64,000 bases of DNA from a virus (IMGVR_UViG_3300020558_000217:32001-96000); one strand, 5' to 3'. Shown: positions 13,484 through 63,319, numbered from the stretch's first letter. Numbers and translations: made by a program. Notes: generated by a model not told the origin, from the letters alone.

Positions 13484-13544
13484 TGGCGGGCGATACAAAT
13501 GCCCAACATACAATTGTTATACACTGTAATACGGAGAAATATAC

Positions 13545-14450: not shown

Positions 14451-14454
14451 AATG

Positions 14455-14484
14455 AAGAGGGAGCCAAATTGGCTCCCTTTTTTA
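14455..14484. terminator. Rho-independent terminator between convergent genes
   Basis: AGGGAGCCA-AAT-TGGCTCCCT hairpin followed by a T-run. Confidence 0.85.
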
Positions 14485-45283: not shown

Positions 45284-45784
45284 ATGGAAACTAATGAAGG
45301 TCAAGAAATTTATTTCAAACAATACATCCAGAGGCAGGAAAATCTGCTTCTGGATTTTATTCGTAAAAATACCGATTTAGAAATTAGAGTTTCTGCTCTA
45401 TCTTTCTCGTTAAAAGATATAACTTCCAAATACGAAGAATCTCAAAAACAAGTTTCAATACAAAACGATTTGATGCAACAAGCAGCAAACAGTGTAGAAA
45501 AACTTACTATTGAGAAAATGAATCTAGAGAAAAAAGAAACAGATAATAATAAAATAATAGAAGATTTGAAAAAGAATCTTCATGATTGTAAAGAAGAAAG
45601 AAAAAAGATTTTAAAAGATTTTGATGAATTTAAAAAATCTAATAAAAATTACGAAGATCTGAGTAAAGAATATGCTCGTCAAAACGAAGAAATGAATAAA
45701 GTATATTCTGAAAATAAACAATTAAAAGATAAAACTATAAATAAAACTAAACCTCAGGCAATATTGCCTCCGGATGAATTTTAA
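45284..45784 (+). CDS. Coiled-coil protein
   Basis: Heptad-rich K/E composition. Confidence 0.75.
   Translation: METNEGQEIYFKQYIQRQENLLLDFIRKNTDLEIRVSALSFSLKDITSKYEESQKQVSIQNDLMQQAANSVEKLTIEKMNLEKKETDNNKIIEDLKKNLHDCKEERKKILKDFDEFKKSNKNYEDLSKEYARQNEEMNKVYSENKQLKDKTINKTKPQAILPPDEF
45736..45743 (+). promoter_or_regulatory. Probable late promoter for 45822
   Basis: TATAAATA. Confidence 0.5.
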
Positions 45785-45821: not shown

Positions 45822-46961
45822 ATGGCCAACACAGTTTTCAAACTGCGACGTTCATCAGTCGCAGGTAAAGTTCCTACCACAACAGATATTGCTATTGGCG
45901 AATTGGCAATAAATCTTACTGATAGAAAACTGTATTCTTCTGATGGTTCTAATACTTGGGAAATTGGAGCTAATCTTACATCTATAAGCGTTTCCGCTAA
46001 TTCTACAGTAAACAATATTATCATTTCTGGTGGAATATTTGCCAATGGTGGATTTGGTAATTCTGGGCAAGTTTTAACTTCTAATGGTTCAGCAACTTAT
46101 TGGACTAGTTCTAGCGGCGCAGGAACAGTAACACAAGTTAATACTGGAATTGGACTTACTGGAGGTCCAATCACATCTTCAGGAACTATAGAAGTTGTAG
46201 CCAATAGTGGCATAGTTGCTAACTCTTCAGGGGTGTTTGTTAAAGCTGGTAATAATGTTACTGTAAATTCAACTGGCGTTCATGTTATTGGCTCTGGTTA
46301 TGTCAGACAATCGTTTACCGGTAATGGTTCTAATACGATATTCACAATATCTGGAGGTTATACATCTAATAATCTTGATGTATATGTTAATGGTATTAGA
46401 TATAATAGTTCAGAAGTAGATGTGTCGTCGGGCACAACAATTACTTTTACAACAGCTCCTTTATCTGGCGCTTTGATTGAAGTTGTTGGTATAACTGCTG
46501 GCGTTCTGAATTATACAACCGTTAATACTGATTTAGCCTATACTTGGACAAATACGCACACTTTTAGTAATACAGTAACATTAAACGCTGTTTCAGCAAA
46601 CGGTTCTCTAGGCACCGCCAATCAGGTATTAACGACAAACGGTTCAGTTGTGTATTGGGCAAATGCTTCTGGTGGTAGCGGTGGCGGTTCTTGGATTCAA
46701 AAAACTTCTGGGTATACCGCCGTCAAAGGCGAATGGATCATGTGTGATACGAGCTCCGGAGCATTTACAGTTACATTACCAGCCTCTCCTAATACTAATG
46801 ATTATGTAAAAATAAACGTTGGGCCAGTGGCTTCAACAAATAATATAACAATTGGAAGAAATGGCTCTACAATTATGTCATTGAGCGAAAATATGACTAT
46901 AAATGACAATAATATTACAGTAGAGTTTGTTTATAATGGTTCAACTTGGAGAATAGCATAA
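45822..46961 (+). CDS. Tail fibre-like protein
   Basis: KLRRSSVAGKVP...GELAINLTDRKLY N-terminus; C-terminal DTSSGAFTVTLPASP domain of the kind seen in T4 gp34. Confidence 0.8.
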   Translation: MANTVFKLRRSSVAGKVPTTTDIAIGELAINLTDRKLYSSDGSNTWEIGANLTSISVSANSTVNNIIISGGIFANGGFGNSGQVLTSNGSATYWTSSSGAGTVTQVNTGIGLTGGPITSSGTIEVVANSGIVANSSGVFVKAGNNVTVNSTGVHVIGSGYVRQSFTGNGSNTIFTISGGYTSNNLDVYVNGIRYNSSEVDVSSGTTITFTTAPLSGALIEVVGITAGVLNYTTVNTDLAYTWTNTHTFSNTVTLNAVSANGSLGTANQVLTTNGSVVYWANASGGSGGGSWIQKTSGYTAVKGEWIMCDTSSGAFTVTLPASPNTNDYVKINVGPVASTNNITIGRNGSTIMSLSENMTINDNNITVEFVYNGSTWRIA

Positions 46962-48188
46962 ATGAGTAATTTTTCACAATTTATAGGTAAAGCATTCCCA
47001 ATAGGCGGAATACTTAATATGCCATATAGTTCAGATTTATATACTGCTGCTGATGGTACCCAATGGTACGCTTTAGTATCTACTGCTCCTTTTGATTATA
47101 CTTCAGATTATTCTTATTTACCAGATCACTTGACTTCGCCGCATCCTATATTTTATGGCCCGGAAAGCGGAGGACTTTGGTATGGACCTGTAGTTTCACA
47201 ATCTATTTCTATAGCATATAATCCTTCCGGACCTCTTTATGTTACTGCAACTTTTAATGGTAATGCTACTAATGGATTCAAATATTATACATCAACAAAT
47301 GGTTCAACATGGACAGAAAGAACATTTCCTAATTCTAAAACGTATCCTATTATACAGTATACAGCAGGAAAATTTATAGCAGTTTCGCCAAGTTCAACAA
47401 CAGATGGTATTATAACTTCTACTGATGGTATTAATTGGACTTCAGTTACAGGTGTGAGCATAGCAAATATCACAGATATTATATCTGATGGTACAGATGT
47501 AATTGTATTTCCATATAATAGTACAACGGCAGCATATTCTTCAGACGGTGGTTCTACTTGGGCTTCATCGACAATGGCTGCTAGTTCTGGCACTAGTAAT
47601 GCAATCAATACTAATGGTATAGGAAGTATTACATGGAACGCTGGCGCTGGATTATTTATAGCAATAACTTCTACAACAGGGCAATATCAAACATCAGCAA
47701 CAGGGGCTAATGGATCATGGACAGCCAGAACGCCAGCAACCTATAATGGTTACGCACAATTTACAAATTCAACAAGGTTTGCTTCAAACTCAACAACAAC
47801 AGTTGCAGTAGGTATAACTGGTTTTTTTGCAACTACAACTGATGGTTTAACTTGGAGTAATCATGGATTGATTTCGACCTCATTGGCTACTACTTCCGCT
47901 CCTCTTGCAGTGTATCATGATGGAACTAGATTTGTTGTTAGATTTTCTCAAAGAGTTTTTTATTCGACAGATGGTGTAACATGGACAGAAGGTAAACCAA
48001 TTGGAGGAGTATCAATTAATAGCCCAGTTTCAAGCGGTGTGATGTTTAGCTTTCTTACAAACAATTTTACATTGATTAATAAAATGTTAAAAATATCCGA
48101 TGTCACATTAACTACTCCACAAACAATTATTCCTGCTGCTGGACATTCTTTTTTTGCTGCCACCGTAAATTACGTAAGAATCAGATAA
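46962..48188 (+). CDS. Asp-box/BNR-repeat beta-propeller virion protein
   Basis: STNGSTW, STDGINW, SSDGGSTW, TTDGLTW, STDGVTW. Confidence 0.75.
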   Translation: MSNFSQFIGKAFPIGGILNMPYSSDLYTAADGTQWYALVSTAPFDYTSDYSYLPDHLTSPHPIFYGPESGGLWYGPVVSQSISIAYNPSGPLYVTATFNGNATNGFKYYTSTNGSTWTERTFPNSKTYPIIQYTAGKFIAVSPSSTTDGIITSTDGINWTSVTGVSIANITDIISDGTDVIVFPYNSTTAAYSSDGGSTWASSTMAASSGTSNAINTNGIGSITWNAGAGLFIAITSTTGQYQTSATGANGSWTARTPATYNGYAQFTNSTRFASNSTTTVAVGITGFFATTTDGLTWSNHGLISTSLATTSAPLAVYHDGTRFVVRFSQRVFYSTDGVTWTEGKPIGGVSINSPVSSGVMFSFLTNNFTLINKMLKISDVTLTTPQTIIPAAGHSFFAATVNYVRIR

Positions 48189-48212
48189 ATATATAAAAAG
48201 AGAGAGATTTAA

Positions 48213-49640
48213 ATGGCTCAAAGTCAAGAATTAGCAGAATTAGGGCAATATTTATCTGTAAATAGTACTTCTAATACCATTATTTTTAATGGTATTATTT
48301 CTGTTGCTAATGTATCTATGACTTCTGCCGGATTTACAGTTAATGGTTCAACAGTTGTTGTAAACTCTTCTGGTGTTACAACAACAGGATTTGTTAATGC
48401 TACTTCAAGTGTTAACTCTGCTTCGTATACGACTGGCGGAACAGGAACGAGTACTGGCGGATTTGTTGCTAATACCACTCGAATTTTTATTGGCAATAAT
48501 ACTGTTAATGCAGCTGTTAATACTACTGTTTTATATATTAGTGGTAATGTTATTGCTAATTCTACTGGCGCTAACAATGCATTCAATTTAGGCGGAACTG
48601 CTGCTTCTTCCTATCAGCTTAATTCTACTTTAAACGCTAATATTGCCAGTTACCTTCCAACATATACTGGTGTTGTTAATGGTTCTAGTCATACTGTAGG
48701 TTCTTCATTTATTGCTAATGCTACTGGTGTTTATCATACTGGCACAATGAACGCTGCCAGTCTTACAGTGGGAACTTCTACAATCGCTAATTCCACTGGC
48801 GTTTACACTGGTATTGTTAATGGTTCTAGTATTACAGTTGGAACTTCTTTCACTGCTAACTCTACTGTGGTTAACGCTGTCAGTTTAAGAGTAGCTAGTA
48901 GTTTCTTAGCCAATACTACAGGCGCTTATCATACTGGAACTATGAACGCTGCTAGTTTTACAGTAGGCACCTCAACAATTGCTAATGCTACTGGTGTTTA
49001 CACTGGAATAGTTAATGCTACAACGATCTCAACTGGTTCAGTAAACGTAATAAATGCTTCTGGTTTGACAACCTCGGCCAACGTTAATATATCAGCAACA
49101 GGCGAACTTATTATCACTGCTGGCGCTGGTATATCTGCTAATGGCGGATTTGGTACCGCTGGTCAAGTTTTAACTTCTAATGCATCTTCAATATATTGGT
49201 CAACAGTTGGCGGTGGTGCTACGCTAACTGCAAATAATACTGACACAGTTACATATTACTTACCTATGGCCAATACTACATCAGGCACTTGGTCTAATGC
49301 TGTAGTTTCAACCACCAAACTATACTTTGTTCCTTCAACTGGAACTTTGTCCGCTACGATATTCAATTCACTATCAGACGCTAATCAAAAGACAAATGTT
49401 CAGATTATTACCAGTGCTGTTAATACAGTCAGTAAAATGGAAGGTGTTTCGTTCAACTGGAAAGATTCTGGAGCAAAATCATATGGTGTTATTGCTCAAG
49501 AAATTGAAAAGATACTTCCGGATATTGTCAATGAAAACAATGGAACTAAGTCTGTCAATTATGATGCTATCATAGCGTTCCTTATTCAATCAGTCAAAGA
49601 ACTTTCTGAAAGGGTTGAGAGATTAGAGAATGACAAGTAA
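48213..49640 (+). CDS. Tail fibre with a C-terminal peptidase S74 chaperone
   Basis: SDANQKTNV...GVSFNWK...GVIAQEIEKILP...VNYDAII..LIQSVKEL; contains the 23-aa repeats. Confidence 0.88.
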   Translation: MAQSQELAELGQYLSVNSTSNTIIFNGIISVANVSMTSAGFTVNGSTVVVNSSGVTTTGFVNATSSVNSASYTTGGTGTSTGGFVANTTRIFIGNNTVNAAVNTTVLYISGNVIANSTGANNAFNLGGTAASSYQLNSTLNANIASYLPTYTGVVNGSSHTVGSSFIANATGVYHTGTMNAASLTVGTSTIANSTGVYTGIVNGSSITVGTSFTANSTVVNAVSLRVASSFLANTTGAYHTGTMNAASFTVGTSTIANATGVYTGIVNATTISTGSVNVINASGLTTSANVNISATGELIITAGAGISANGGFGTAGQVLTSNASSIYWSTVGGGATLTANNTDTVTYYLPMANTTSGTWSNAVVSTTKLYFVPSTGTLSATIFNSLSDANQKTNVQIITSAVNTVSKMEGVSFNWKDSGAKSYGVIAQEIEKILPDIVNENNGTKSVNYDAIIAFLIQSVKELSERVERLENDK

Positions 49641-50793
49641 TTATCTTGCCGATGATCCAATTTTAGGTAGCGTAGATTTAGACGATCTATTTGTCACTGA
49701 CGCTTGGTTAGTTGATCAGTTTGTTGGTAATCAGATGTGGGCGTTTGGGCAAAACAATTTTGGTCAATTAGGAGACAGAACAATAGTTCATCGTTCTTCA
49801 CCAGTTCAAGTAGGATCGCTAGTAAATTGGAGTCGTGTTGCTGCTGGTAGTGATCATATAGTATCAATAAAAACAGATGGCACTTTATGGGCATGGGGTT
49901 ACGGCGCTCAAGGTCAATTGGGTCTTGGTAATACTACTAGTCGTTCATCTCCAGTTCAAGTAGGTTCATTAACTAATTGGAAACAAGTGTCAGGCGGTTA
50001 TTATGAAACATTAGCAATTAAAACAGACGGCACTTTATGGGGATGGGGTTATAATTTTTATGGTCAATTAGGAGATGGAACGAGAGTTGATAAGTCTTCG
50101 CCTATTCAAGTTGGAACTTTGACTAATTGGAAACAAGTTGAAACCTCATTTGGATTTACAATAGCAATTAAAACAGATGGTACGTTATGGGCATGGGGAT
50201 TAAACGATTATGGTCAATTAGGTTTAGGAGATATAGTTCATCGATCATCGCCTATTCAAGTTGGATCATTAACCAACTGGAAACAAGTTTCAGTGGGTTA
50301 TTATAGCACATTTGCGATTAAGACTGACGGAACATTATGGGCATGGGGCAGAAATAATTTTGGGTTTCTAGGAATAGGTAATACCGCCCATCGTTCTTCT
50401 CCTACTCAAGTTGGATCATTGACTAATTGGAAACAGGTTTCTTCTGGACAATTTCATGTAGCAGCTATTAAAACTGATGGAACTTTGTGGAGTTGGGGAA
50501 ATAATGATTATGGTCAATTAGGCTCAGGGAATTCTACTGGTCGTTCTTCTCCTATACAAATAGGAACATTGACTAATTGGAAACAAGTTTCCTTAGCTAA
50601 ATTCAATTATCACACAACAGCAATCAAAACTGATGGTACATTATGGTCTTGGGGGCTTAATATTGAGGGTTACTTGGGTCATAATGATCTAGTTTGGAAG
50701 TCTTCTCCTGTGCAACTTGGTTCATTAACTAATTGGAAGGAAGTTGCTACTGCATTTAGATCAACTGTAGCAATAACTTACACTGAAATATAA
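49630..50793 (+). CDS. RCC1-repeat beta-propeller protein 1
   Basis: About 7 repeats of AIKTDGTLWAWG.N..GQLG.G...RSSPVQVG. Confidence 0.9.
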   Translation: MTSNYLADDPILGSVDLDDLFVTDAWLVDQFVGNQMWAFGQNNFGQLGDRTIVHRSSPVQVGSLVNWSRVAAGSDHIVSIKTDGTLWAWGYGAQGQLGLGNTTSRSSPVQVGSLTNWKQVSGGYYETLAIKTDGTLWGWGYNFYGQLGDGTRVDKSSPIQVGTLTNWKQVETSFGFTIAIKTDGTLWAWGLNDYGQLGLGDIVHRSSPIQVGSLTNWKQVSVGYYSTFAIKTDGTLWAWGRNNFGFLGIGNTAHRSSPTQVGSLTNWKQVSSGQFHVAAIKTDGTLWSWGNNDYGQLGSGNSTGRSSPIQIGTLTNWKQVSLAKFNYHTTAIKTDGTLWSWGLNIEGYLGHNDLVWKSSPVQLGSLTNWKEVATAFRSTVAITYTEI

Positions 50794-50805
50794 TAGAGGA
50801 ATAAA

Positions 50806-51459
50806 ATGACTGATTACGTTCTTGTAGAAAACAAACAAATAATTCATCTTGGTCCTATGGGTTGGAAGCCAAGAATGTTTCAATCTGAATTGAACGATCT
50901 TGAAGTAGATTTTACTGTTCCTACAGCAGAACCCGGATACATTCAGATCAATGAAAACTTTGAGATTATGCCTGTGAGTTTAGATACTCCAACGCATAAT
51001 CCATTGTTTGAAGAACTGGCAGGTCCATTTTGGACGTATGAAAATAATACTGCTATTGGTCATTACACTGTGCATGACGGTAATATAGATTCTATCAAAG
51101 GCAATTTAAAAAACATCGTCGCTGCTCTAAGATATAATAAAGAACAAACTCCGTTCAAATACACCATTCAAGGAACAGAAATTACTGTTGATGCGTCAAG
51201 AGAAAACAGAAATATCTTTGTTCAGAAATATCAATTTATGACTGACGCTGAAACTGTTGATTGGAAGTTTCCAGAAACATGGCTCACACTAACTAAGGCA
51301 GAACTCGGCGAATTAGTTGTGGCTGGTGCTACTCACATTCAGACACAATTTGATTGGGAAAAAGGATATGTTGATAGTATTGAAAGTTCTACAACTATTG
51401 ACAATCTAAGAAACATTTATAATGAATTGATACCTCCGCCTAATTACTCAGGGGTGTAG
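50806..51459 (+). CDS. Tail-fibre assembly-like protein (DUF4376-like C-terminus)
   Basis: RYNKE...VDWKF...WLTLT..EL...HIQ.QFDWE. Confidence 0.6.
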   Translation: MTDYVLVENKQIIHLGPMGWKPRMFQSELNDLEVDFTVPTAEPGYIQINENFEIMPVSLDTPTHNPLFEELAGPFWTYENNTAIGHYTVHDGNIDSIKGNLKNIVAALRYNKEQTPFKYTIQGTEITVDASRENRNIFVQKYQFMTDAETVDWKFPETWLTLTKAELGELVVAGATHIQTQFDWEKGYVDSIESSTTIDNLRNIYNELIPPPNYSGV

Positions 51460-51461
51460 TA

Positions 51462-52697
51462 ATGGCTGTTACTGGTCCTAACACAGGATTTACACTCACT
51501 GAATCAGGAGTAACGAGTGATCTTGGTAATAGGTATGTTTCTAAAGACTATCTACTTGATGTTTATCCCAATTTAGTTTCTCCAACAGGAAACAGAACTT
51601 CTCCTGGATTGTATGTTTGGGGATTTCAAACCAGTCCTAGTGGCGAGTATTTTTTGGGTCTAGGAGACAGTAATCATCGTTCTTCGCCAGTTCAACTTGG
51701 ATCGTTGAGTAATTGGAACATGGCTAGTTATGGCGATACTCATGTCATAGCTTTAAAAACAGATGGCACTTTATGGGGGTGGGGCGGTGATAGTGGATCA
51801 AGAGGAGCATTTGGTGTAGTTACTAATTTAGGTGGTACTTATTCAACGCCAATACAGTTAGGCGCTGATACAAACTGGAAATTTGTAAAAGCAGGAAGAT
51901 TATTGTCAGTAGGATTGAAAAATGATGGATCGATGTGGGCGACAGGTTATAACTTAGATGGTCAGTTAGGTTTCGGAACAGGAGGTGTAAATGTTTCTAG
52001 TTGGACTCAAATAGGCTCTGATACTAACTGGAAACAATTAGTGTATGGCGAGTATAGTGGTTACGCTTTAAAAAATAATGGTACATTATGGAGTTGGGGA
52101 TTTAATGGTAGTGGTCAATTAGGCCATGGTAATATAGTCCATCGTTCTTCTCCTACTCAAGTTGGTTCATTAACTAACTGGAAACAAGTTTCTGCTGGTC
52201 TTAGATATGGAATGGCAGTCAAAACAGATGGCACATTATGGGCATGGGGTCACAATAATGTAGGCCAATTAGGTTTAGGTGATCTTGTTCATCGTTCGTC
52301 TCCTGTTCAGGTTGGTTCATTGACCAATTGGAAAGAAGTTTCTTGCGGAGGATGGGCATGTTTTGCGATTAAAACAGATGGAACATTATGGGCTTGGGGT
52401 CATAATCCAGCGGGCGACTTAGGTTTAAACGATACTAATAGTCGTTCTTCCCCTGTTCAGGTTGGTTCATTGACCAATTGGAAACGTGTTTTTGGTGCCT
52501 GTGGTAAAGCAATTAAGACTGACGGAACATTGTGGGGATGGGGACGAAATTCCGAAGGAAATGTAGGAGTTGGTACTGCAACAGATAGATCATCACCTAT
52601 TCAAATAGGCACAGAAACAACTTGGAAATCTTGTAATTACGATGGTTATAACACTACTAGAATGACAACATTCGCAATCAAAGACGGATATTTTTAA
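51462..52697 (+). CDS. RCC1-repeat beta-propeller protein 2
   Basis: Same RCC1 repeat. Confidence 0.9.
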   Translation: MAVTGPNTGFTLTESGVTSDLGNRYVSKDYLLDVYPNLVSPTGNRTSPGLYVWGFQTSPSGEYFLGLGDSNHRSSPVQLGSLSNWNMASYGDTHVIALKTDGTLWGWGGDSGSRGAFGVVTNLGGTYSTPIQLGADTNWKFVKAGRLLSVGLKNDGSMWATGYNLDGQLGFGTGGVNVSSWTQIGSDTNWKQLVYGEYSGYALKNNGTLWSWGFNGSGQLGHGNIVHRSSPTQVGSLTNWKQVSAGLRYGMAVKTDGTLWAWGHNNVGQLGLGDLVHRSSPVQVGSLTNWKEVSCGGWACFAIKTDGTLWAWGHNPAGDLGLNDTNSRSSPVQVGSLTNWKRVFGACGKAIKTDGTLWGWGRNSEGNVGVGTATDRSSPIQIGTETTWKSCNYDGYNTTRMTTFAIKDGYF

Positions 52698-53888
52698 ATG
52701 CCAGCAATAGGATATAAATTTCCAATCTATAATTCTGATGGTAATGTATCAACTACAAGCGTTGATATGGGCGATATGTTTGTTTTTAAAGATCAGTTTT
52801 TGAATGCCGGATTATATGGGTGGGGAGACGATACTTATGGTCAAATAGGTGCAAATGTGGCAAATGATAGGCGTTCTTCGCCCGTTCAAATAGGCTCATT
52901 GACCAATTGGAAAGATATTACCAATGGGATTCAACATAATCATGCTATTAAAACTGATGGAACTTTGTGGAGTTGGGGTGCAAACTTTGCAGCACAATTA
53001 GGTGATGGAACAACTACTAATCGTTCATCTCCTGTTCAAATAGGAACAGGTACAAATTGGAAACAAATTTCTGCCGGTGGAAATTTTGTATTAGTTATCA
53101 AAACCGATGGCACTTTATGGGGATGGGGGGCCGCATCTTTTGGAAGATTAGGAGACGGAACAACCGTTACTAAGTCTTCGCCCGTTCAGATAGGAACAGA
53201 CACAAATTGGAAACAAGTTTCTGCTGGTTTTTTACATGGCGGAGCAATTAAAACCGACGGTACATTATGGACGTGGGGTTATAATGTTTTTGGCGCAGTA
53301 GGCGACGGAACAACTACTGATCGTTCATCTCCTGTTCAAATAGGAACAGGTACAAATTGGAAACAAGTTTCTGCCGGTTACACACACACTGGCGCTATTA
53401 AAACTGATGGTACTTTATGGGTGTGGGGAAACGGAGTTAATGGTAGATTAGGCAACGGAACAACTACTGATCGTTCATCTCCTGTTCAAGTAGGAACATT
53501 ATCAAATTGGAAACAAATTTCTAGTGGAGCAGCTCATACTGGCGCTATAAAAACTGATGGTACTTTATGGATGTGGGGTCTGAATAATGATGGACAATTA
53601 GGTGATGGCACTGTTGTTTCAAAATCCTCGCCAATACAAATAGGAACAGGCACAAATTGGAAACAAATTTGCTTATCTAAAACTGGATATTATACATTAG
53701 CAATCAAAACAGATGGCACATTGTGGGCGTGGGGAATAAACGCCAATATTTCTCCACATGGTAATCTAGGTTTAGGAGATATAGTTCATCGATCATCGCC
53801 TGTTCAGATAGGATCACTAACTAACTGGAAACAAGTTTCAGCAGGAGAAGTTAGCGCACACGCTATATCTGCACCAGAACTACCCTAA
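52698..53888 (+). CDS. RCC1-repeat beta-propeller protein 3
   Basis: Same RCC1 repeat. Confidence 0.9.
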   Translation: MPAIGYKFPIYNSDGNVSTTSVDMGDMFVFKDQFLNAGLYGWGDDTYGQIGANVANDRRSSPVQIGSLTNWKDITNGIQHNHAIKTDGTLWSWGANFAAQLGDGTTTNRSSPVQIGTGTNWKQISAGGNFVLVIKTDGTLWGWGAASFGRLGDGTTVTKSSPVQIGTDTNWKQVSAGFLHGGAIKTDGTLWTWGYNVFGAVGDGTTTDRSSPVQIGTGTNWKQVSAGYTHTGAIKTDGTLWVWGNGVNGRLGNGTTTDRSSPVQVGTLSNWKQISSGAAHTGAIKTDGTLWMWGLNNDGQLGDGTVVSKSSPIQIGTGTNWKQICLSKTGYYTLAIKTDGTLWAWGINANISPHGNLGLGDIVHRSSPVQIGSLTNWKQVSAGEVSAHAISAPELP

Positions 53889-53916
53889 ATAGTCTATATT
53901 AGATTATGAGGTCGTT

Positions 53917-55344
53917 ATGAAATCAGATGAAATTTGGCAGTCAATCACTGCTGGTCTTCCAAAAACACCATCACCATCAGAAACTATTCCGTTACCTGAA
54001 ATTTTAAGGGTTATGGAATATTGCTTAGACAATCGTGTAGAAAAATTTAACGCTGCTATTGACCTATTAGATTGTATTGCACCGCTAAGAAATGATATTG
54101 AGTTTCTTAACTTTAAAGCAATGGTCGAGTTCGTTGCAAAAAAGTATAATCGTTGCTTACAAACTTCTGAACAAATTTTAAATCACTATAAAGACACCAA
54201 CACATACTTTAACGCCGGGCGTGCAGCGTATAAAGCCAATCAACTAGAGAAATCATTAGAATATCTCACCAAATCATTAGAACTTGATCCAGAAAATGTT
54301 TCTGTTCTTCTTGATTACGCTGTCACCATTTGTACCATGGGAGACTTTGATGGTTCATTGGATATTATCAACAACATAGATAAATCAAAATATTCCGAAA
54401 GAGACCAGAAAGTAACTGACTTCAATAAAGGTTGGCATACTATTCGGAAAGGCGACTTCAAGAAAGGTATGGCTCTACTTAATATTGGTCGTGATCTTAA
54501 ACTATTAGGAACACATTCTGATAAGTATGATCAACCAGAATGGGATGGCACTACATATGAAGGTAAAACTATTCTTATTGTCGGCGAAGGTGGTATTGGT
54601 GACGAAGTAATCAATGCTCGTTTCTCTAAGATCATCAAAGAACGTGGTATGAAATGTATCATGTCTACGGTACATAACAATCAGTCTATGTTATCTTCCG
54701 TTAGAATGATTGACAAGGTGATTGACAATAAAGACATTCGTAAAGAAAAGTGGGACTACTGGGTTCCTTGTATGTCTCTGCCATATAAGTTAGGCATAGA
54801 CTCTAACGAAATACCAAATGAACCATATCTATTTGCTAAACCAGGATATGTTGTTAAGTGGAAGAACAGAATCAAATCTGATAAGAAACTTAACATTGGT
54901 ATTCGTTGGATGGGTAATCCATTATACGAACTAGAATTAGCCAGAACAATTCCTGTAGAATACTTTGACGAACTATCTAAGTATGACGTTCAACTTTGGT
55001 CGTTACAAAAAGATGACGGTGTTCCGTTTAGATTGCCAACTAATACTATAGACTTGGCATCAGGTTTTGAGAATTGGGATGATACGATGGGAGCCATTAT
55101 GAATATGGATCTTGTCATTACATCCTGCACCTCTGTTGCTCATGTTGCCGCTGCTCTTGGAAAACCTACATGGGTTGTAATGCCCTTACTTCCATATTAT
55201 ACTTGGGCAGACATGAAAAAAGAATCCTACTGGTATAAGAATGTATCTTGTTACCGTCAAAGAGTATGGCAAGATTGGTCTGCTCCATTTGATGAATTGA
55301 AGAAAGATTTAGAACATGAAATTAAACTTAGCAATTCCAATTAG
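53917..55344 (+). CDS. TPR-repeat + GT-B (GT9/heptosyltransferase-like) glycosyltransferase
   Basis: N-terminal TPR helices; WDG...GKTILIVGEGGIGDE; DLVITSCTSVAHVAAALGKPTWV. Confidence 0.85.
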   Translation: MKSDEIWQSITAGLPKTPSPSETIPLPEILRVMEYCLDNRVEKFNAAIDLLDCIAPLRNDIEFLNFKAMVEFVAKKYNRCLQTSEQILNHYKDTNTYFNAGRAAYKANQLEKSLEYLTKSLELDPENVSVLLDYAVTICTMGDFDGSLDIINNIDKSKYSERDQKVTDFNKGWHTIRKGDFKKGMALLNIGRDLKLLGTHSDKYDQPEWDGTTYEGKTILIVGEGGIGDEVINARFSKIIKERGMKCIMSTVHNNQSMLSSVRMIDKVIDNKDIRKEKWDYWVPCMSLPYKLGIDSNEIPNEPYLFAKPGYVVKWKNRIKSDKKLNIGIRWMGNPLYELELARTIPVEYFDELSKYDVQLWSLQKDDGVPFRLPTNTIDLASGFENWDDTMGAIMNMDLVITSCTSVAHVAAALGKPTWVVMPLLPYYTWADMKKESYWYKNVSCYRQRVWQDWSAPFDELKKDLEHEIKLSNSN

Positions 55345-56074
55345 AACTTCTGGTGTATATAACTTTTGGAACTCTGAAAGATATATCAGTAAAGATAAGG
55401 GTCTAATCACTAGAACCTGTATTAAAAGTCTTGCCGCTTCTATCGCTGCATCTCAAGTAAGGCCAATCATATCCATTCACGATGATAACTCTGACGATTA
55501 TACTCTTAACTCTATACACGAATCATTTCATGAATATGGATTAAAGTATGAGTTATATCACACAGAACCACAACAGAACTTTATATCGCAGTATGAATGG
55601 ACTATAGAACAAGATTTTGATTTTGTTTATAACATAGAAGATGATTACCTACATTATCCTGCTGCCATACATGATATGGTTGATATGATTGATTGTATGA
55701 ATCGGCTAAAACCTTATGACTATGCCATGTATCCATTCAACAATCCACACAGATACCAAAGTTTCGCTGCTTTGTATCCCTCATATATTGTAAAAGGAAC
55801 CTACCAGTATTGGCGTTCGCTATTGCATTCAACTCATACCTTTATGTGTTCTAAGAAGTGTTTTGTGGATAATATAGATATAATGAAAGACCAAGCATAC
55901 ACTTGGCATGTTGATGCTGCCGTTGAGGATGAAAGCATCAATAAAGTTTGGAGAAACCAGGAAACAATATTATTCTGTCCAATGAACTCTCTGGCGTTTC
56001 ATATGACAGACGTTACACAAAAGCCTGACTTTGATGATTGGCAGACATTATGGAGTTACTATGAAACACGGTAA
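55316..56074 (+). CDS. GT-A fold glycosyltransferase
   Basis: IHDDNSDD and YNIEDDYLH motifs. Confidence 0.75.
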   Translation: MKLNLAIPIRTSGVYNFWNSERYISKDKGLITRTCIKSLAASIAASQVRPIISIHDDNSDDYTLNSIHESFHEYGLKYELYHTEPQQNFISQYEWTIEQDFDFVYNIEDDYLHYPAAIHDMVDMIDCMNRLKPYDYAMYPFNNPHRYQSFAALYPSYIVKGTYQYWRSLLHSTHTFMCSKKCFVDNIDIMKDQAYTWHVDAAVEDESINKVWRNQETILFCPMNSLAFHMTDVTQKPDFDDWQTLWSYYETR

Positions 56075-56900
56075 GACAGCGGTATATACTATTCTCAAGA
56101 ATGAAAAGCAGTATATCGAAAAGTGGTTATATTACGCCGATCCTTTTGATTACAAGGTTTTACTTGACACCGGATCAGCTGATGGTTCATGGGAAATGTT
56201 GCAAGAGGCAGCAACAAAAGATCCAAAACTAATCATTGAACAAAAAACATTTACGCCTTGGCATTTCTCTAATGCTCGCAATCATAACATGACAATGATT
56301 CCGAATGATGTTATTTGGTGTCTTTCGCCAGACTTAGACGAATACTATTCTATCAATACACATGATCAAATCGAAAAGGTTATTGATCAGAATCCTAATG
56401 CGACTTCTATTACTTCTGATAGGTTGGATATCTACTCACATCATGTAAAGGTCGGACCACCATTTCTACTACCTACTAACAAAATTCATCTCAAGGATTA
56501 TTACAACTGGAAACAGCCGGTGTATGAATACATCAACTATATTGGGCCAGAAGGTTATGATGTTGAAGTTTATGATCCCTTGATTTGCCTTATTCACGAT
56601 CAGGATTTTCGTAAGAAAGAACGATCAGAATTATACATCAAACTTATGGAAGACGAATACGCTGTCAATCCCACAAACACTTGGGTTCTATGGTTTCTAA
56701 CATATCACTACTATAAGTCAAGGCAAATAGACAAATACATTCCCGCTGCTTGCGATTATATTACTTATCATGACAACATGTATGATAATAACTATAAGGG
56801 ACTTTTGAAGGATCTAACCAACTTATATTTCTTTGATAAAGATGTTACACCAGAGCAGAAAGAACAGATCAAATCAGTAATCAAGGGCAAGTCAATATGA
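56061..56900 (+). CDS. GT2-family glycosyltransferase (SunS-like architecture)
   Basis: YTILKNE, LDTGSADG, FSNARN, PDLDEY motifs; helical C-terminus; GGAG RBS before ATG 56061. Confidence 0.82.
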   Translation: MKHGKTAVYTILKNEKQYIEKWLYYADPFDYKVLLDTGSADGSWEMLQEAATKDPKLIIEQKTFTPWHFSNARNHNMTMIPNDVIWCLSPDLDEYYSINTHDQIEKVIDQNPNATSITSDRLDIYSHHVKVGPPFLLPTNKIHLKDYYNWKQPVYEYINYIGPEGYDVEVYDPLICLIHDQDFRKKERSELYIKLMEDEYAVNPTNTWVLWFLTYHYYKSRQIDKYIPAACDYITYHDNMYDNNYKGLLKDLTNLYFFDKDVTPEQKEQIKSVIKGKSI

Positions 56901-57565
56901 ATAATTTTAGATGGATAATTGAAAACCCTAACGATACTATTCAAAGTTCTTTAAAAGCAGGTCATTTTCACGAACAACGTGAAATGGAGATTATGAAAGA
57001 GTATTGTCCAAAGGGAGCGCATATACTGGACATTGGCGCTAATGTTGGTAATCATTCAGTGTATTTTAGTAAGTTCTTTGATGCTGAAATAATCTATGCT
57101 ATCGAACCATTGCCAGTGGCATACAAGATGTTGTTAGCCAATCTGTGTTTAAACTACTGTCATAATGTTAATGTTGATTATGTCGGCGTAGCATTAGGTC
57201 ATATGGAAACTCAAGGATTTCCGATGGAGATTTATCCTGACAATCTAGGATCAACCAGATTGTTTCATGAAGATAAAACCGATTTACCATTTCAGAAGTT
57301 TGATCCAGTCAATATCATTCCAGGTGATGTTCTATTTGCTGATAAAAGAGTTGATTTTATCAAGATGGATATTGAAGGAATGGAGATGGTTGCTCTTATG
57401 GGATTAAAAGAAACCATCGCCAGAAATAGACCTAATATGTTTGTTGAAGTCAGTATTGAAAACGTAGAAGATTTTCACCAGTGGATGGACGAAAATAACT
57501 ATAAAGTTGTTTGGAATGAGATAGAACCTAGAATTTTTGCTTCATATATTATCATTCCTCAGTAA
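56897..57565 (+). CDS. FkbM-family SAM-dependent methyltransferase
   Basis: LDIGANVGNHS and DFIKMDIEGME motifs. Confidence 0.92.
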   Translation: MNNFRWIIENPNDTIQSSLKAGHFHEQREMEIMKEYCPKGAHILDIGANVGNHSVYFSKFFDAEIIYAIEPLPVAYKMLLANLCLNYCHNVNVDYVGVALGHMETQGFPMEIYPDNLGSTRLFHEDKTDLPFQKFDPVNIIPGDVLFADKRVDFIKMDIEGMEMVALMGLKETIARNRPNMFVEVSIENVEDFHQWMDENNYKVVWNEIEPRIFASYIIIPQ

Positions 57566-58342
57566 ATATTCTTCTATGGAAAGAAACTTATGATCTATAA
57601 AATGATTCAATGAGCATGTGAAGTATTGATACTTATTCTCCAGATGTTTTGGAAAGGGAATGCACTCAATTGTAGCGCATTCTTTTTCAGCAACTAATTG
57701 AGCCACCCTTTCAAACGACCTAGCAACTCCTGTGCCGAGATCGTAAATACCAGAAGGTTTATCATAAAACATACAATCAATAACATCTTCTACCCAAATA
57801 AAGTCTCGCATACATGCGTTAGATTTTTCGAATAGTTTAATTGTTCCTGTTTCTCTTGCTTGTTTGGTGAATTTATAAACTGGACTTGCTTGGTCGCCTT
57901 TGTGGCTTTCGTGTTTGCCAAAAACATTAAAGAATCTATAACCTTGAATTTTAGAAAACTTATCTATATTATCTTCTACAAACCTATCAATAGTTGCTTT
58001 TGATAGAGCGTAATAATTCAAAGGGTTTATTTCTCTTCTATAATTTGTATTACCATACACTGCAGCAGACGAAGCGTATTTTACAGGAATTTGATAGTCT
58101 ATTGCATTATTAAGTAGTTTGATAGTATAGTCTATGTTATACTTGTGTATTTTATTAATATCAGTTTCAGTAGTGTCTGTAATAGCTCCAAGATGCCAAA
58201 TTTGCTTTATTTCTTCCCAATTTATACCCTCGTATAAATCGTCAAAACAATATTGTTTTTCTGAATAATAGATTCCTCCTTGTGGAAATCTTTGAAGTAA
58301 ATGTTGACCAATAAATCCGTCAGTCCCTGTTATTAAGATCAT
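57542..58342 (-). CDS. hldD: ADP-L-glycero-D-manno-heptose 6-epimerase
   Basis: TGTDGFIG, HLGAITDTTE, YASSAAVYG, PLNYYALSK, RFFNVFG.HE.HKG.QAS, RDFIWVED, KYQYFT. Confidence 0.9.
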   Translation of the reverse strand: MILITGTDGFIGQHLLQRFPQGGIYYSEKQYCFDDLYEGINWEEIKQIWHLGAITDTTETDINKIHKYNIDYTIKLLNNAIDYQIPVKYASSAAVYGNTNYRREINPLNYYALSKATIDRFVEDNIDKFSKIQGYRFFNVFGKHESHKGDQASPVYKFTKQARETGTIKLFEKSNACMRDFIWVEDVIDCMFYDKPSGIYDLGTGVARSFERVAQLVAEKECATIECIPFPKHLENKYQYFTCSLNHFIDHKFLSIEEYLLRNDNI

Positions 58343-58631
58343 TGAAAAAATCCTCTGAATTTATCGCCTTGTCGTCAATCCAAACATCATATGATGGTTT
58401 ATTGAAATTAAGGGAAGTATATTTAACGCCCCATTTTTTAAACTGTTCAATAGTCAAATCGCGCCAATCTTTGCCCGAACTCATTCCTCTTGCAGTCCAG
58501 TAATGTATTTCATAACCAACATCATACAAACTGTTAAGAGTCTCAATTCTTTTTTTGATAGGCAATGAATTAGCGTAATCGCTATTTTTTGAAATACAAA
58601 TAGTATTATCAATATCTACCAAATATTTCAT
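58320..58631 (-). CDS. Minimal HAD-family phosphatase (capsule-biosynthesis-phosphatase-like)
   Basis: DIDNT, WTARG, KP..D.WIDDKA motifs. Confidence 0.8.
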   Translation of the reverse strand: MKYLVDIDNTICISKNSDYANSLPIKKRIETLNSLYDVGYEIHYWTARGMSSGKDWRDLTIEQFKKWGVKYTSLNFNKPSYDVWIDDKAINSEDFFNDLNNRD

Positions 58632-58981
58632 TTTTGACTGTCTCCTGGCATTATTCTGAAATCATCGTTATCATAATGTGTAGTTGAGATTTCGAATACA
58701 ACAGAATCATCTTCAAGAGCTTCTAATTGATGTGGTTCTCCAGGTTCGTTTGTCCAAGTATCGCCTTCTTTTAAAATATTGTGTTGAATCGAAGCATCTT
58801 TAGTTTCTATCCAATGTATTTTAAATTTTCCTTTTTGAACATAAAACGTTTCATGTTTTTTTAAATGAAAATGCATAGATCCTTTAGAGCCAGCTTTATC
58901 ATATACTAATAACTTACCACAATATTTGTCGTTGTTTTCAATTATGAGTTCTCTACCCCATCCTTTATTGACAATCTGCAT
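58628..58981 (-). CDS. Cupin-fold sugar isomerase/epimerase-like protein
   Basis: KGWGRE, SMHFHLKKHETFYV, PH motifs. Confidence 0.8.
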   Translation of the reverse strand: MQIVNKGWGRELIIENNDKYCGKLLVYDKAGSKGSMHFHLKKHETFYVQKGKFKIHWIETKDASIQHNILKEGDTWTNEPGEPHQLEALEDDSVVFEISTTHYDNDDFRIMPGDSQK

Positions 58982-60119
58982 TTAAATGCTCCAAAGTTTT
59001 TGTAGTAGAGTAGCCCTTAACAAATGGTATTATTACGACCTTTGTTAAATCGTTACCTACAACTTCTTCAGGTTTATAGTCTCCGCCCTTTGTAATTATA
59101 TCTGGCTTCAATTTTTTTATTAATTCATAAGGAGTATCTTCGTTAAAAATAATAACTTCATCGACACAATCTAGAGCTTCTAGAACTGCTTTTCTGTCTT
59201 TCTGATTGTTTATAGGTCGTTGTTCGCCTTTTAATCTTTTGATTGATTCGTCTGAATTCAAACCCACTATCAATTTATATCCAAGTTTTCTAGACTCTTT
59301 TAGATATTCTATGTGGCCTCTATGTAGAATATCAAAACAACCATTAGTGAATACTACAGAGTTTTTAGCAATATTTTCTTTTGATAAAACATATGTTCCG
59401 AATTTAGTAACTGAAATACTGGCCAATCTCACAGCCTTTGAACAAGCATCATAAAGGTTGTTTCCGATACTAAGATAGTGAGTCATAGCTGCGATGAATA
59501 CATCTCCTGCGCCAGTAACATCAGAAACTGGATGTTTGTCTGTTGATATTTCTCCTTCGAAATCGTCAGAGGAAATATATACTCCATTCTCTCCCTTTGT
59601 GACTACAATAGATCCTATGTTGAATAATTTTCGAAGCTGAAAAGGCGTATTACCGAATCCATATTCTTCAAGTTCTTTTTGGTTCAATTTTATTATACTT
59701 GAATTTTTATAATTGTCAATAGGTTTTTTGGGATCTACTATAACTTTAGAACCTTTTTTAATAAAATTATCAACTATCAATTGGCTGTGATGTAAGAATC
59801 CTTTGTTATAATCAGAAAGAATCACATAATCCGGATTAACTGGAAAATCTATATCTTGATTTGGGATATATTCTTCTTCGTCAGAACGAAACATTATATG
59901 ATTATCGCATACGAATCTGGTCTTTTTGGAATTAAAAGAAGCAAAAATCTCAGTATCCGAACCAAGAGCTTGGAGATTCTCGTAGACATTTCCTGCACCG
60001 CCTGAACGAAATTCAGTAGTTTTAGATTTGAAAACAGGTATGGGAGACTCAGGCGATATACGGTCTACGGTGCCATATATATAAATATCTTCTATGTAAT
60101 CACCAATCACTGCGATCAT
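58965..60119 (-). CDS. hldE: Bifunctional heptose 7-phosphate kinase / heptose 1-phosphate adenylyltransferase
   Basis: RISPESPIPV, GGAGNV, SDYNKG, DVTGAGD (PfkB kinase) fused to FTNGCFDILHRGH, GLNSDES, KGGDY, STT (nucleotidyltransferase). Confidence 0.93.
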   Translation of the reverse strand: MIAVIGDYIEDIYIYGTVDRISPESPIPVFKSKTTEFRSGGAGNVYENLQALGSDTEIFASFNSKKTRFVCDNHIMFRSDEEEYIPNQDIDFPVNPDYVILSDYNKGFLHHSQLIVDNFIKKGSKVIVDPKKPIDNYKNSSIIKLNQKELEEYGFGNTPFQLRKLFNIGSIVVTKGENGVYISSDDFEGEISTDKHPVSDVTGAGDVFIAAMTHYLSIGNNLYDACSKAVRLASISVTKFGTYVLSKENIAKNSVVFTNGCFDILHRGHIEYLKESRKLGYKLIVGLNSDESIKRLKGEQRPINNQKDRKAVLEALDCVDEVIIFNEDTPYELIKKLKPDIITKGGDYKPEEVVGNDLTKVVIIPFVKGYSTTKTLEHLNADCQ

Positions 60120-60181: not shown

Positions 60182-63100
60182 ATGGCAGATAAAGATTTCG
60201 TCGTAAAAAATGGTCTAGTTACCGGAACTAATAACGTCACAATAGGTAACTCAGTATATATAGTTGCCAATGGCAACGTCGGCGTTGGCACTGATACCCC
60301 TAATGCTCTGGTGACTATTGTAGGTCCAACCACTAACGCAACTAATTTAAATATTAATGGTTTGACAGTAACTTATAATAGTAACACGTTTAATAATTCT
60401 TCCAATGTAGGCGGAGCTGCTATTGGTGGATATAATGCTAACGGTTTTGGCGTTTTAGGTAGATCTGGTCCTGGTATAGGCGTTATTGGTGTTGCTAATG
60501 TTGGTGGTGGATATGGCGTTGGAGGTTACGCCCATTCAACGGCAGATTCTTTTTCGGTCGCAGGCTATTTTCTCAACCAAAGTAATGGTATTGGCGTTAG
60601 AGCAGCATCAGTTTCTGGTAGACCGTTCGTTGTTGCTAATGCCACAGTAGATATTATGACTGTGATTTCTAATGGTAATATTGGTATAGGAGATTCTTCT
60701 CCTGCAGTTAGATTAGTTGTTAATGGATCAATCAATGCTACTAGTATAAACGCTGCTTCTTATACAGTTGGAACATCATTCACTGCTAATTCTACTCTAG
60801 TAAACGTTGTTTCTTTATCAGTTTCTACTAACACATCTACCTTCGGTACAGCAGCCCGAATAGTTGCTAACGGCAACATCGGTATAGGAACTGCTACCCC
60901 TAATTCTCTAGTAACTATTGTAGGTCCGGCTGCTAATGCAACCAATTTAGATATTAATGGTTTGACAGTAACTTATAATAGTAACACATTCACTAATTCG
61001 GTAAATACTGGTGCTGCAGCTATTGGTGGATATAATGCTAACGGTTTTGGTGTTCTTGGTAAATCAGGGGCTGGTATAGGCGTTATTGGTGTTGCTAATG
61101 TTGGTGGCGGTCAAGGAGTTGCAGGTTACGCCCATTCAACGGCAGATTCTTCTTCAATTGCAGGATATTTCTTTAATCAAAGTAATGGTACTGGAGTCTA
61201 TGCTAGATCTTTTGGCGGTAGACCATTCGTTGCTGCTAGTAATACTGCAGAATATATGAGCATTTCAGCTAACGGTAATATTGGTATAGGAGATTCAACC
61301 CCTGCAGTTAGATTAGTTGTTAATGGATCAATCAATGCTACTAGTATAAACGCAGTTTCTCATACAGTTGGAACATCATTCACTGCCAATTCTACTCTAG
61401 TAAACGCTGTTTCGCTAGTAGTGTCAACTAACACTTCTACTTTTGGCACAGCAGCCCGAATAGTTGCCAATGGTAACATTGGCGTTGGTACTGCTACTCC
61501 TGGTGAAAAAATTACTGTCATTAGTACCGATAGTACAGGGGCTGCGGGATTTCAAACTTTATCTGGAACTGCGACAGCTCTGGGAGCTGCAGCTAATGCT
61601 GGCGTTGGAGCTTATATCCAATCTAGAACTGGTAGGCCATTAGTTGTTGCTAATAATACTACAGAATTTTTCCAAGTTGTTGCTAATGGCAACGTCGGCG
61701 TTGGCACTGCTACCCCTAATTCTCTAGTAACTATTGTAGGCCCAACCGCTAATGCTACTAACCTAGATATTAATGGTCTAACAGTTACCTATAATAGTAA
61801 CACATTCACCAGTTCTTCTAATGTAGGCGGAGCTGCTATTGGTGGGTATAACGCCAATGGTTTTGCTGTTCTTGGTAGATCTAGCGCTGGTATAGGTATT
61901 GTTGGAGTTGCTAACTCTGGTAGCGGTATTGCTATTGCAGGTTATGCTCATGCAACAACTAATTCTTCTGCGCATGCAGGTTTTTTCTTGAATTCAAGTA
62001 ATGGAATTGGCGTTAGAGCGGCGGTCTCAACAGGTGGTAGACCTTTCGTTGCTTCTAATGCTACTGTAGAATTTATGTCTGTTGAAGCTAATGGCAACAT
62101 TGGTTTCGGCAATTCATCGCCTAGATCTAAATTACATATAACCAGAAGTTCGGGCGCCAGCGCCGCTGGCGAAATATATTTGGATGAAGGTTTATATTGG
62201 TCCATGTTGAACAGTCGGTCGACCGTTGGCGCTTGGAATCCATTAGTACAAACTAATGATCATACTTTAATATATTCTGATGGTTCGGCTGATACTGGCG
62301 CTTTGGTCATTGGACCATGGTCTTCTGATAACAAAGGTATGCGTATCGCTAGTAATGGTAGCATTGGTATTGGTACTGCTACTCCTGGCGAAAGAATTAC
62401 TGTAATTAGCGCCGATGGTAGAGGAGCTGGATTTTTTCTATCCAATACAGGTAATGGTTTGAGTAGCAAAACTGAAAATGGTTTTGCTGGAATTATTGGT
62501 GTATCTAACTCTAGTTCATCATCTGTCGCTATTGCTGGTTACGCTAATACTGGATATGGTGGTTATTTTCAAACTTTCTTTGGGACGCAGACAGCTCTAG
62601 CAGCTGTAGCTAATGCTGGAGTTGCAGTTTACGCTCAATCCGGAACTGGTAGACCATTAGTTGTTGCTAATAATACTGTAGAATTTATGTCTGTTCAAGC
62701 TAATGGCGCTGTTTTATTTGCTGGCACTCATCATAATATATCCAGTCTCGGTGGAGTTTTTAGGACTGGCGCTGGCGATTATGGTGTTAGAATTTATCCA
62801 GGTGGCGGTAGTGATTCGAATACTGCTATATTACAATTCACAAACGCTGCTCAAAATACACAAACAGCCCAAATCGCAGTAAATTCTGCAGGTCTTTTTG
62901 TGGGTACTTCTGTTAGCACCTCTGTTTATTTTGTAGCCGGTGGTTCAGTAAAGGCCACATTAGATCCAAGTGGTAATTTCGTCGCCAATGGTAATATTAC
63001 TGCATTTGGCGCGACTTCCGACGAAAGATTGAAAGAAAATATTACACCATTTTCAAACACACTAGATAAAGTAAAAAGACTTCAAGGCGTTACTTATAAT

Positions 63101-63319
63101 TGGAAAAAAGGAACCGCTGAACGTGATTTTGCTGGTATCAATAATGATATTGGTTTGATTGCACAGAACGTCCAAGAAGTATTTCCAGATCTAGTTCGTG
63201 AAAGCGAAGACGGTTATCTTTCTTTGCGCGATAGAGGTTTGTTTGCAATTCTAATCGAAGCAATCAAAGAACAACAAAATCAAATTGATGAACTTAAAAA
63301 AATGTTGGAGAATAAATAA
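60182..63319 (+). CDS. Long tail fibre (gp37-like) with internal duplications and an S74 chaperone
   Basis: Repeated NGNVGIGT..P; SDERLKENI...IGLIAQ.V..VFP.LV...LIEAIKEQQ. Confidence 0.88.
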   Translation: MADKDFVVKNGLVTGTNNVTIGNSVYIVANGNVGVGTDTPNALVTIVGPTTNATNLNINGLTVTYNSNTFNNSSNVGGAAIGGYNANGFGVLGRSGPGIGVIGVANVGGGYGVGGYAHSTADSFSVAGYFLNQSNGIGVRAASVSGRPFVVANATVDIMTVISNGNIGIGDSSPAVRLVVNGSINATSINAASYTVGTSFTANSTLVNVVSLSVSTNTSTFGTAARIVANGNIGIGTATPNSLVTIVGPAANATNLDINGLTVTYNSNTFTNSVNTGAAAIGGYNANGFGVLGKSGAGIGVIGVANVGGGQGVAGYAHSTADSSSIAGYFFNQSNGTGVYARSFGGRPFVAASNTAEYMSISANGNIGIGDSTPAVRLVVNGSINATSINAVSHTVGTSFTANSTLVNAVSLVVSTNTSTFGTAARIVANGNIGVGTATPGEKITVISTDSTGAAGFQTLSGTATALGAAANAGVGAYIQSRTGRPLVVANNTTEFFQVVANGNVGVGTATPNSLVTIVGPTANATNLDINGLTVTYNSNTFTSSSNVGGAAIGGYNANGFAVLGRSSAGIGIVGVANSGSGIAIAGYAHATTNSSAHAGFFLNSSNGIGVRAAVSTGGRPFVASNATVEFMSVEANGNIGFGNSSPRSKLHITRSSGASAAGEIYLDEGLYWSMLNSRSTVGAWNPLVQTNDHTLIYSDGSADTGALVIGPWSSDNKGMRIASNGSIGIGTATPGERITVISADGRGAGFFLSNTGNGLSSKTENGFAGIIGVSNSSSSSVAIAGYANTGYGGYFQTFFGTQTALAAVANAGVAVYAQSGTGRPLVVANNTVEFMSVQANGAVLFAGTHHNISSLGGVFRTGAGDYGVRIYPGGGSDSNTAILQFTNAAQNTQTAQIAVNSAGLFVGTSVSTSVYFVAGGSVKATLDPSGNFVANGNITAFGATSDERLKENITPFSNTLDKVKRLQGVTYNWKKGTAERDFAGINNDIGLIAQNVQEVFPDLVRESEDGYLSLRDRGLFAILIEAIKEQQNQIDELKKMLENK
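60266..61465 (+). repeat. 600-bp (200-aa) tandem duplication, with a third partial copy at about 61682-62110
   Basis: For example TTTGACAGTAACTTATAATAGTAACAC at both 60361 and 60961. Confidence 0.88.

Follow-up and report, generated by a model that had tools for sequence, protein, structure and literature searches.

We analysed a 64,000-nucleotide stretch of viral DNA (the window; IMGVR_UViG_3300020558_000217:32001-96000, that is, bases 32001-96000 of an IMG/VR virus record 105.6 kb long and ~62% complete) that contains an island of eight tightly packed open reading frames (ORFs), four on the plus strand (53917-57565, genes A to D) and four on the minus strand (57542-60119, genes E to H). The explanation we favour, at about even chances, is that the island is a soluble, late-expressed kit for cytoplasmic glycosylation of the phage's own RCC1 tail proteins. 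Its lead enzyme A, in which a tetratricopeptide repeat (TPR) arm precedes a glycosyltransferase (GT) domain of GT9 fold, is nearly always found beside RCC1 propeller genes, and decoration by the phage of its own tail proteins is therefore probable. The TPR arm, the lack of membrane segments (0 in any island enzyme, so that all are predicted to be soluble) and the packing of the genes behind a late-promoter-like motif point to a soluble machine that works on proteins made alongside it. Glycosylation of phage proteins had already been proposed in a first-pass annotation of this DNA, and, carried out by soluble enzymes, it is still the best fit to a TPR-fused A packed into a fibre operon. ORF calls also bear out the eight genes of that annotation and the 24-bp overlap (57542-57565) between the convergent genes D and E; the ORFs are real, their family matches are strong, and chance is excluded as their source.

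Gene A (53917-55344, plus strand), the proposed priming protein glycosyltransferase, shows only TPRs to Pfam, and a PDB sequence search with it returned TPR proteins only. Its AlphaFold2 model (predicted local distance difference test 93.9, predicted template-modelling score 0.90) consists of an all-helical TPR solenoid (residues ~1-195) followed by a GT-B domain (~200-475) with a four-stranded N-lobe. Foldseek, given the whole chain, placed XcOGT (2vsn) and SPY (8dti) at the top (E ~1e-7), and the solved structures nearest to the GT-B domain are GT9 heptosyltransferases, the protein-modifying TibC included. Larger homologues, 28-33% identical to A over the GT domain, are scored as Glyco_transf_9 (PF01075) by Pfam, which identifies A as a divergent GT9 relative. 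Among 40 members of the A family (34-74% identity), the motifs EGGIGDE (with D229) and ITSCTSVAH (with C404, the sole invariant cysteine) and several basic residues of the C-lobe are invariant; we read D229 as sitting at the first strand-helix loop, equivalent to the GT9 position. The family numbers 647 proteins at E ≤ 1e-5 and is found on at least 540 IMG/VR stretches. Some A-like domains are fused to sulfotransferase, FkbM, S-adenosylmethionine (SAM)-methyltransferase or GT4 domains (in P0168, for example, an FkbM domain is joined to an A-like GT), which suggests that these enzymes act on one target.

Several characterised enzymes resemble A in part. TibC and AAH (PMC4358343; PDB 4RAP/4RB4) are GT-B enzymes of GT9 type, soluble and cytoplasmic, which O-glycosylate the product of a neighbouring adhesin gene before its export, and TibC shares with A a reduced four-stranded N-lobe (PMC4358343) and, as we infer, an acidic residue after the first strand (D110 in TibC). 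They differ in that A carries a TPR arm in the place of TibC's beta-barrel, has neither a beta-hairpin thumb nor a four-Cys iron finger, and would have beta-propellers as its substrate where TibC has a beta-helix. Membership of A among the bacterial autotransporter heptosyltransferases (BAHT), to which TibC and AAH belong, is ruled out by the missing barrel and iron finger; A is a divergent GT9-fold enzyme and not a BAHT. With GT41 enzymes (OGT, SPY, HMW1C) it has in common a TPR or helical N-terminus and a GT-B catalytic domain. A comparison with GT9, TibC and GT41, suggested in the first-pass annotation, has returned a GT9/TibC-like fold on a GT41-like architecture, with the PF01075 threshold, the barrel and the iron finger all wanting. 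By its published description FlmG of Caulobacter crescentus is likewise a soluble, two-part TPR and GT-B protein; its N-terminal TPR binds flagellin and its C-terminal GT-B domain transfers a sugar made by co-encoded enzymes (PMC7591256), an experimental precedent that makes substrate capture by the TPR arm of A plausible, although the donor of FlmG is pseudaminic acid and its substrates are flagellins. The heptosyltransferases WaaC and WaaF (CAZy GT9; PDB 2H1H, 1PSW, 3TOV) are more distant in design, with no TPR and a lipid A-Kdo acceptor at the membrane, and relative to them the N-lobe of A is shortened. Modification of virion proteins by a phage has also been described in mycobacteriophages, reportedly in Gram-positive-type hosts, with capsid and tail-tube targets and with enzymes unrelated to those of the island. 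As cited in PMC12582341, the work of Freeman et al. (2023) has mycobacteriophage glycosyltransferases modifying the phages' own virion proteins.

The gene neighbourhood of A was surveyed in 80 viral loci, of which 75 had enough upstream and 54 enough downstream sequence; dereplication at 90% left 46 lineages for upstream counts and 39 for downstream counts. At 66 of the 75 loci (42/46 lineages) the 3 kb upstream of A contain the end of an RCC1 gene, and the gap between the two is below 300 bp at 53 loci. The genes that end directly upstream of the A homologues at L034 (249-9827), L031 and L073 encode giant RCC1 arrays, of >3,000 aa and with many propellers. The same association recurs among 50,697 phage records, where four of the five that carry A are also top RCC1 matches, and where the best phage matches to the RCC1 protein encoded next to A in the window (S-SRM01, BUCT-ZZ01 and AG-345-E08) are records carrying A; of the cultured carriers, S-SRM01 (MW015081) and BUCT-ZZ01 (ON615601) have the RCC1-A pair, and P-SSM2 has the heptose cassette described below. 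The downstream side is more varied: a sulfotransferase is present in 22 of the 39 lineages, a SAM-methyltransferase-like 200-aa protein in 17, a GT-A enzyme like B in 16, FkbM and GT25 in 12 each, and HldE in only 6. Beyond the island follow the T4 neck genes, gp15 and the terminase. We found no paper describing a pairing of RCC1 with GT9, in a literature where 'RCC' is confounded by the Roscoff Culture Collection.

In the window, three RCC1-repeat beta-propeller genes precede A on the plus strand: RCC1a (49630-50793, 387 aa; PF00415 4.7e-81, PF25390 273 bits), which is predicted to be soluble and is a candidate substrate or partner of A, RCC1b (51462-52697, 411 aa) and RCC1c (52698-53888, 396 aa), separated from A directly downstream by 28 bp. 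Between the first two lies a DUF4376 protein resembling tail-fibre or assembly-chaperone proteins (50806-51459, plus strand; PF14301 4.8e-9; phrog_10508 'tail fiber protein'), and the start of RCC1a is overlapped by 11 bp by the end of a tail-fibre gene with a C-terminal Peptidase_S74 intramolecular chaperone (48213-49640, plus strand). With a second Peptidase_S74 fibre beyond its far end, the island does lie within the fibre module where it had been placed. The proposal that sequon-rich fibres are its substrates fared less well. N-X-S/T sequons are in excess in a 1020-aa fibre (39580-42642; 67 against 36.9 expected, z 6.4, from repeats that are not independent), and the excess is confined to this protein, which contains 69-bp (23-aa) tandem repeats at 40975-41490 and 41824-42083; a related 72-bp repeat occurs in the 48213 fibre (48666-48867). 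The RCC1 proteins show no excess of N-X-S/T, and a check for co-occurrence of sequon-rich fibres with the island found no homologue of the 1020-aa fibre in any of the 80 related viral loci. The constant partner of A is instead the upstream RCC1 gene, and RCC1 propellers are the conserved candidate substrate. HMW1C-like N-glycosylation of N-X-S/T is rejected as the leading idea, since the catalytic domain of A appears nearer to GT9 than to GT41, and since the sequon-rich fibre does not recur alongside A and an excess is lacking in the RCC1 proteins.

A scan of GTDB placed the A family in Bdellovibrionota, including the complete chromosome of B. bacteriovorus Bd16, and in Patescibacteria. RCC1 adjoins A at 39 of 80 cellular loci, among them most of those whose A is at least ~32% identical, in gene orders that differ from those of viruses; more distant alphaproteobacterial homologues are without RCC1 neighbours. 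No flagellin genes occur within 8 kb of the 80 cellular homologues, the alphaproteobacterial ones included. In Bd16 a secreted 1038-aa protein is followed by a short A, a methyltransferase-like protein and two RCC1 proteins of ~1,080 aa (L113:9607-12882 and 13022-16243), each with three propellers and a twin-arginine signal (SRRAFL), so in this predator the RCC1 proteins are predicted to be folded propellers exported by the twin-arginine route. A Saccharibacteria contig encodes a 642-aa fusion of an A-like GT with a sulfotransferase (L091:7989-9917) among four RCC1 genes. An adhesin role for RCC1 propellers fits the Saccharibacteria pilus protein PilX2, which carries one (PMC11623550).

The three plus-strand genes that follow A encode further modifying enzymes. 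B (55316-56074, plus strand) is a 252-aa glycosyltransferase of GT-A fold with a DxD motif (EDDY); C (56031-56900, plus strand; start perhaps the ATG at 56034) is a 289-aa GT2-like glycosyltransferase; and D (56897-57565, plus strand) is an FkbM-family SAM methyltransferase (TIGR01444, 90 bits). PDB sequence searches with B and C gave no matches. The identities assigned to B and D in the first-pass annotation stand, as does that of the HldE-cupin-HAD-HldD cassette, and C is GT2-like just at the threshold (PF13704, 27.4 against 27.5 bits; phrog_13126, 2.5e-27). In the mechanism we propose, the TPR arm of A would bind fresh RCC1 propellers encoded just upstream, and possibly the neighbouring fibres, and the GT9-fold domain would attach the first sugar; B and C would extend the glycan, and D would O-methylate it. 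Heptose would be one component of the glycan, added by A or by another transferase.

The gene content of the minus-strand cassette is that of an ADP-heptose pathway. H (58965-60119), a bifunctional heptose-7-phosphate kinase and heptose-1-phosphate adenylyltransferase like HldE, is 34% identical end to end with E. coli HldE and keeps both domains and their GAGD and HxGH motifs, with a score of 296 bits against NF008454 (equivalog cut-off 521); its start is placed at the ATG at 60119, with a Shine-Dalgarno-like GAGAG upstream, in a frame that is open to a TTG at 60167. E (57542-58342) is a short-chain dehydrogenase/reductase like the ADP-glycero-manno-heptose 6-epimerase HldD (34% identity with the E. 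coli enzyme; TIGR02197, 207.6 bits, under the 274.6-bit cut-off) that retains GxxGxxG, SSAA, YxxSK (the Ser/Tyr/Lys triad) and HKG and has a shortened NAD(P) loop, with a 24-residue deletion in the dinucleotide-binding region. F (58320-58631) is a 103-aa HAD phosphatase with a DIDNT (DxDxT) motif, likely an analogue of GmhB, whose best family is the TIGR01689 capsule phosphatase (39.6 bits against a 162-bit cut-off). G (58628-58981) is a metal-binding cupin with a His/His/Glu/His site. H would phosphorylate and adenylylate the sugar, F would remove the 7-phosphate and E would epimerise C6, with G probably standing in for GmhA as the isomerase of sedoheptulose-7-phosphate.

No match to GmhA (SIS_2) was found in the 105.6-kb record, ~62% complete as it is, or in the complete genomes of P-SSM2 and P-TIM68, and where phage heptose cassettes lack GmhA the cupin is constantly present. 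It falls in phage-only clusters, has weak similarity to lyxose- and mannose-6-phosphate isomerases and is sometimes fused to a nucleotidyltransferase. G may accordingly be read from sequence as a candidate non-orthologous, cupin-type phosphoheptose isomerase that replaces GmhA. RefSeq and PHROG name this cupin 'cysteine dioxygenase'. The small HAD family (phrog_1238, PSSM2_311; also L167:5116-5460) is labelled 'phosphoheptose isomerase' in phage records, a label that looks wrong, since a phosphatase is what the DxDxT motif and the TIGR01689 match point to.

F and G are 41-43% identical to PSSM2_311 (41% for F) and PSSM2_312, which identifies the cassette with the known cyanomyophage cluster. 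The 'LPS gene' cassette of P-SSM2, PSSM2_309-313 (PMC1079782; LPS, lipopolysaccharide), has the same five functions (kinase, nucleotidyltransferase, small HAD, cupin and epimerase), of which the first two are fused here as in bacterial HldE. In P-SSM2 the cassette adjoins a tail-fibre gene, just as it abuts fibre genes here; the P-SSM2 fibre and the fibre at 60182 show no resemblance. The cassette itself is already known; here it is joined to an RCC1/TPR-GT9 module, which is absent from P-SSM2. In P-TIM68 a transketolase-like gene lies directly upstream of the cassette (L168:2790-3935), which would fit a supply of sedoheptulose-7-phosphate.

A number of observations weigh against glycosylation of RCC1 proteins as the function of the island, or against parts of that reading. 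The support consists, for every family member, of gene identities, folds and gene linkage, and the RCC1 proteins are putative virion components known from their genes. Much of the viral RCC1-A synteny could reflect common descent among T4-like phages. The description of A as a TPR protein with a GT9-like domain holds for the TPRs and for the fold and falls short on the Pfam score (15.4 bits against PF01075, cut-off 22, over model positions 180-205 only). This weak match and the profile alignment both cover the C-terminal motif ITSCTSVAH..AAALGKP; against E. coli WaaC only that motif of the A-family profile is aligned (hhalign probability 4%), and in this alignment D261 of WaaC, which together with D13 and K192 we take to be its catalytic or donor-binding residues, is matched by the invariant C404, so the donor sugar of A may differ. 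The heptose genes, seen in the first-pass annotation as the source of the donor sugar, lie 10 kb or less from A in only 6 of the 39 lineages (13 of the 54 judgeable loci), are scattered on a quick tree of A (7 changes for 8 labelled rows, which does not improve on shuffles) and occur without A in P-SSM2, P-TIM68 and many other marine cyanophages. An HldE query of five A-bearing cellular genomes recovered a split enzyme in Bd16 and, in the A-bearing Patescibacteria, no heptose kinase, only generic nucleotidyltransferases, in metagenome-assembled genomes (MAGs) that are incomplete. The cassette is best seen as an accessory, mobile supply module. Because it is accessory, scattered and found without A, and because no heptose kinase was detected in Patescibacteria, heptose transfer by A is only one possibility.

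The most serious competitor is that the enzymes build or modify a glycan of the host surface, be it LPS, capsule or another, and so block superinfection or the re-adsorption of progeny to debris. Published work reads such genes in this way, both for the 'LPS genes' of P-SSM2 (PMC1079782) and, in pelagi- and cyanomyophages, for the glycosyltransferases and rfaE of the host-recognition cluster (PMC7029224), which is itself a point against our explanation. The products of HldE and HldD and the GT9 fold belong classically to the LPS core, and the probable host, judging from pmoC in the record, is a Gram-negative methanotroph. We nonetheless consider envelope remodelling unlikely, though well short of negligible: a lipid-carrier priming transferase, a flippase, a polymerase and a ligase are all missing from the island, none of whose enzymes has a membrane segment, A has a protein-binding TPR arm, and the genes lie inside a fibre operon and not among early genes. 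It also explains poorly the linkage to RCC1 and the cellular occurrences; that linkage holds in Bdellovibrionota and Patescibacteria too, for which superinfection exclusion would be meaningless.

A second competitor, which we rate as improbable, divides the island into two modules: A to D would decorate RCC1 proteins or fibres with host-made, non-heptose donors, and the cassette would be a separate mobile unit that serves another acceptor or boosts the host's ADP-heptose. The opposite strand of the cassette, its rarity and scatter around A, its presence without A in cyanophages, the cysteine aligned to WaaC D261 and the Patescibacteria without a detectable heptose kinase all fit such a division. 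Set against it are the 13 judgeable loci at which the cassette does lie within 10 kb of A, its position abutting tail-fibre genes both here and in P-SSM2, and the fact that A is the island's sole enzyme of GT9 fold, to our knowledge the only fold family known to use ADP-heptose. That A is instead a non-catalytic, chaperone-like assembly factor for RCC1 propellers, or that the target of the island is something other than protein, phage DNA for example, is very improbable: TPR proteins are often chaperones, A is under the Pfam GT9 cut-off and the T4 DNA glucosyltransferases also have GT-B folds, yet the candidate catalytic residues are invariant across the 40 homologues, fusions join A-like domains to sulfo-, methyl- and glycosyltransferase domains, and no DNA-metabolism genes lie near the island, which sits within a structural module; DNA modification is in particular an unlikely function.

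Glycosylation of RCC1 proteins may extend beyond this virus. Attachment to other cells is a necessity for T4-like aquatic phages, for predatory Bdellovibrionota and for episymbiotic Patescibacteria. We suggest, as a tentative reading that we regard as possible and somewhat doubtful, that the three share an undescribed system for decorating adhesins, formed by RCC1 proteins together with a dedicated TPR/GT9-fold transferase and accompanied by variable sulfo-, methyl- and glycosyltransferases. Here the system would make a heptose or methyl-heptose glycan by way of a cupin isomerase, and the 'LPS genes' of cyanophages would serve virion decoration. If this is true, the receptor-binding apparatus of many aquatic phages is glycosylated by the phages themselves (A is present on at least 540 IMG/VR contigs), which would affect their host range, the stability of their virions and their escape from defences directed at glycans. 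The default view, now 20 years old, that phage 'LPS genes' modify the host surface would also be overturned, beta-propellers would become a new substrate class for cytoplasmic GT9-type protein glycosyltransferases, and the attachment biology of phages, Bdellovibrio and the candidate phyla radiation would be linked.

The source virus is a T4-like freshwater myovirus whose genes include those for baseplate wedge proteins, of gp6 type and others, and for a tape-measure-like protein; its closest gp6 relatives, from Caulobacter phage Cr30, Pelagibacter phage HTVC008M and Sinorhizobium phages, are only 35-37% identical, and megablast of the island against the 50,697 phage records gave no match. A pmoC gene (PF04896, E 5.7e-110) is present in the same record ~13.7 kb before the window start (G000:C1:17588-18310), and small contigs with A and RCC1 (L123 and L129), probably pieces of similar phages, were binned in Methylobacter and Methylovulum MAGs, which together make a Gram-negative methanotroph the likely host.

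Late expression is suggested by a T4-type late-promoter-like motif, TATAAATA (45736-45743, plus strand), ahead of a run of genes (45822-57565) in which every intergenic gap is at most 37 bp. The motif stands at 43253, 45736 and 60080 on the plus strand, 25-95 bp upstream of the structural starts at 43285, 45822 and 60182; with 12 copies in the window against 9.3 expected, a count not above chance, its reading as a late promoter is a lead only. A scan for sigma-70 promoters and terminators gave counts equal to those in shuffled sequence and was uninformative. The last of the three starts belongs to a 1045-aa tail-fibre gene with a Peptidase_S74 chaperone (60182-63319, plus strand), divergent from the heptose cassette, with its copy of the motif at 60080-60087.

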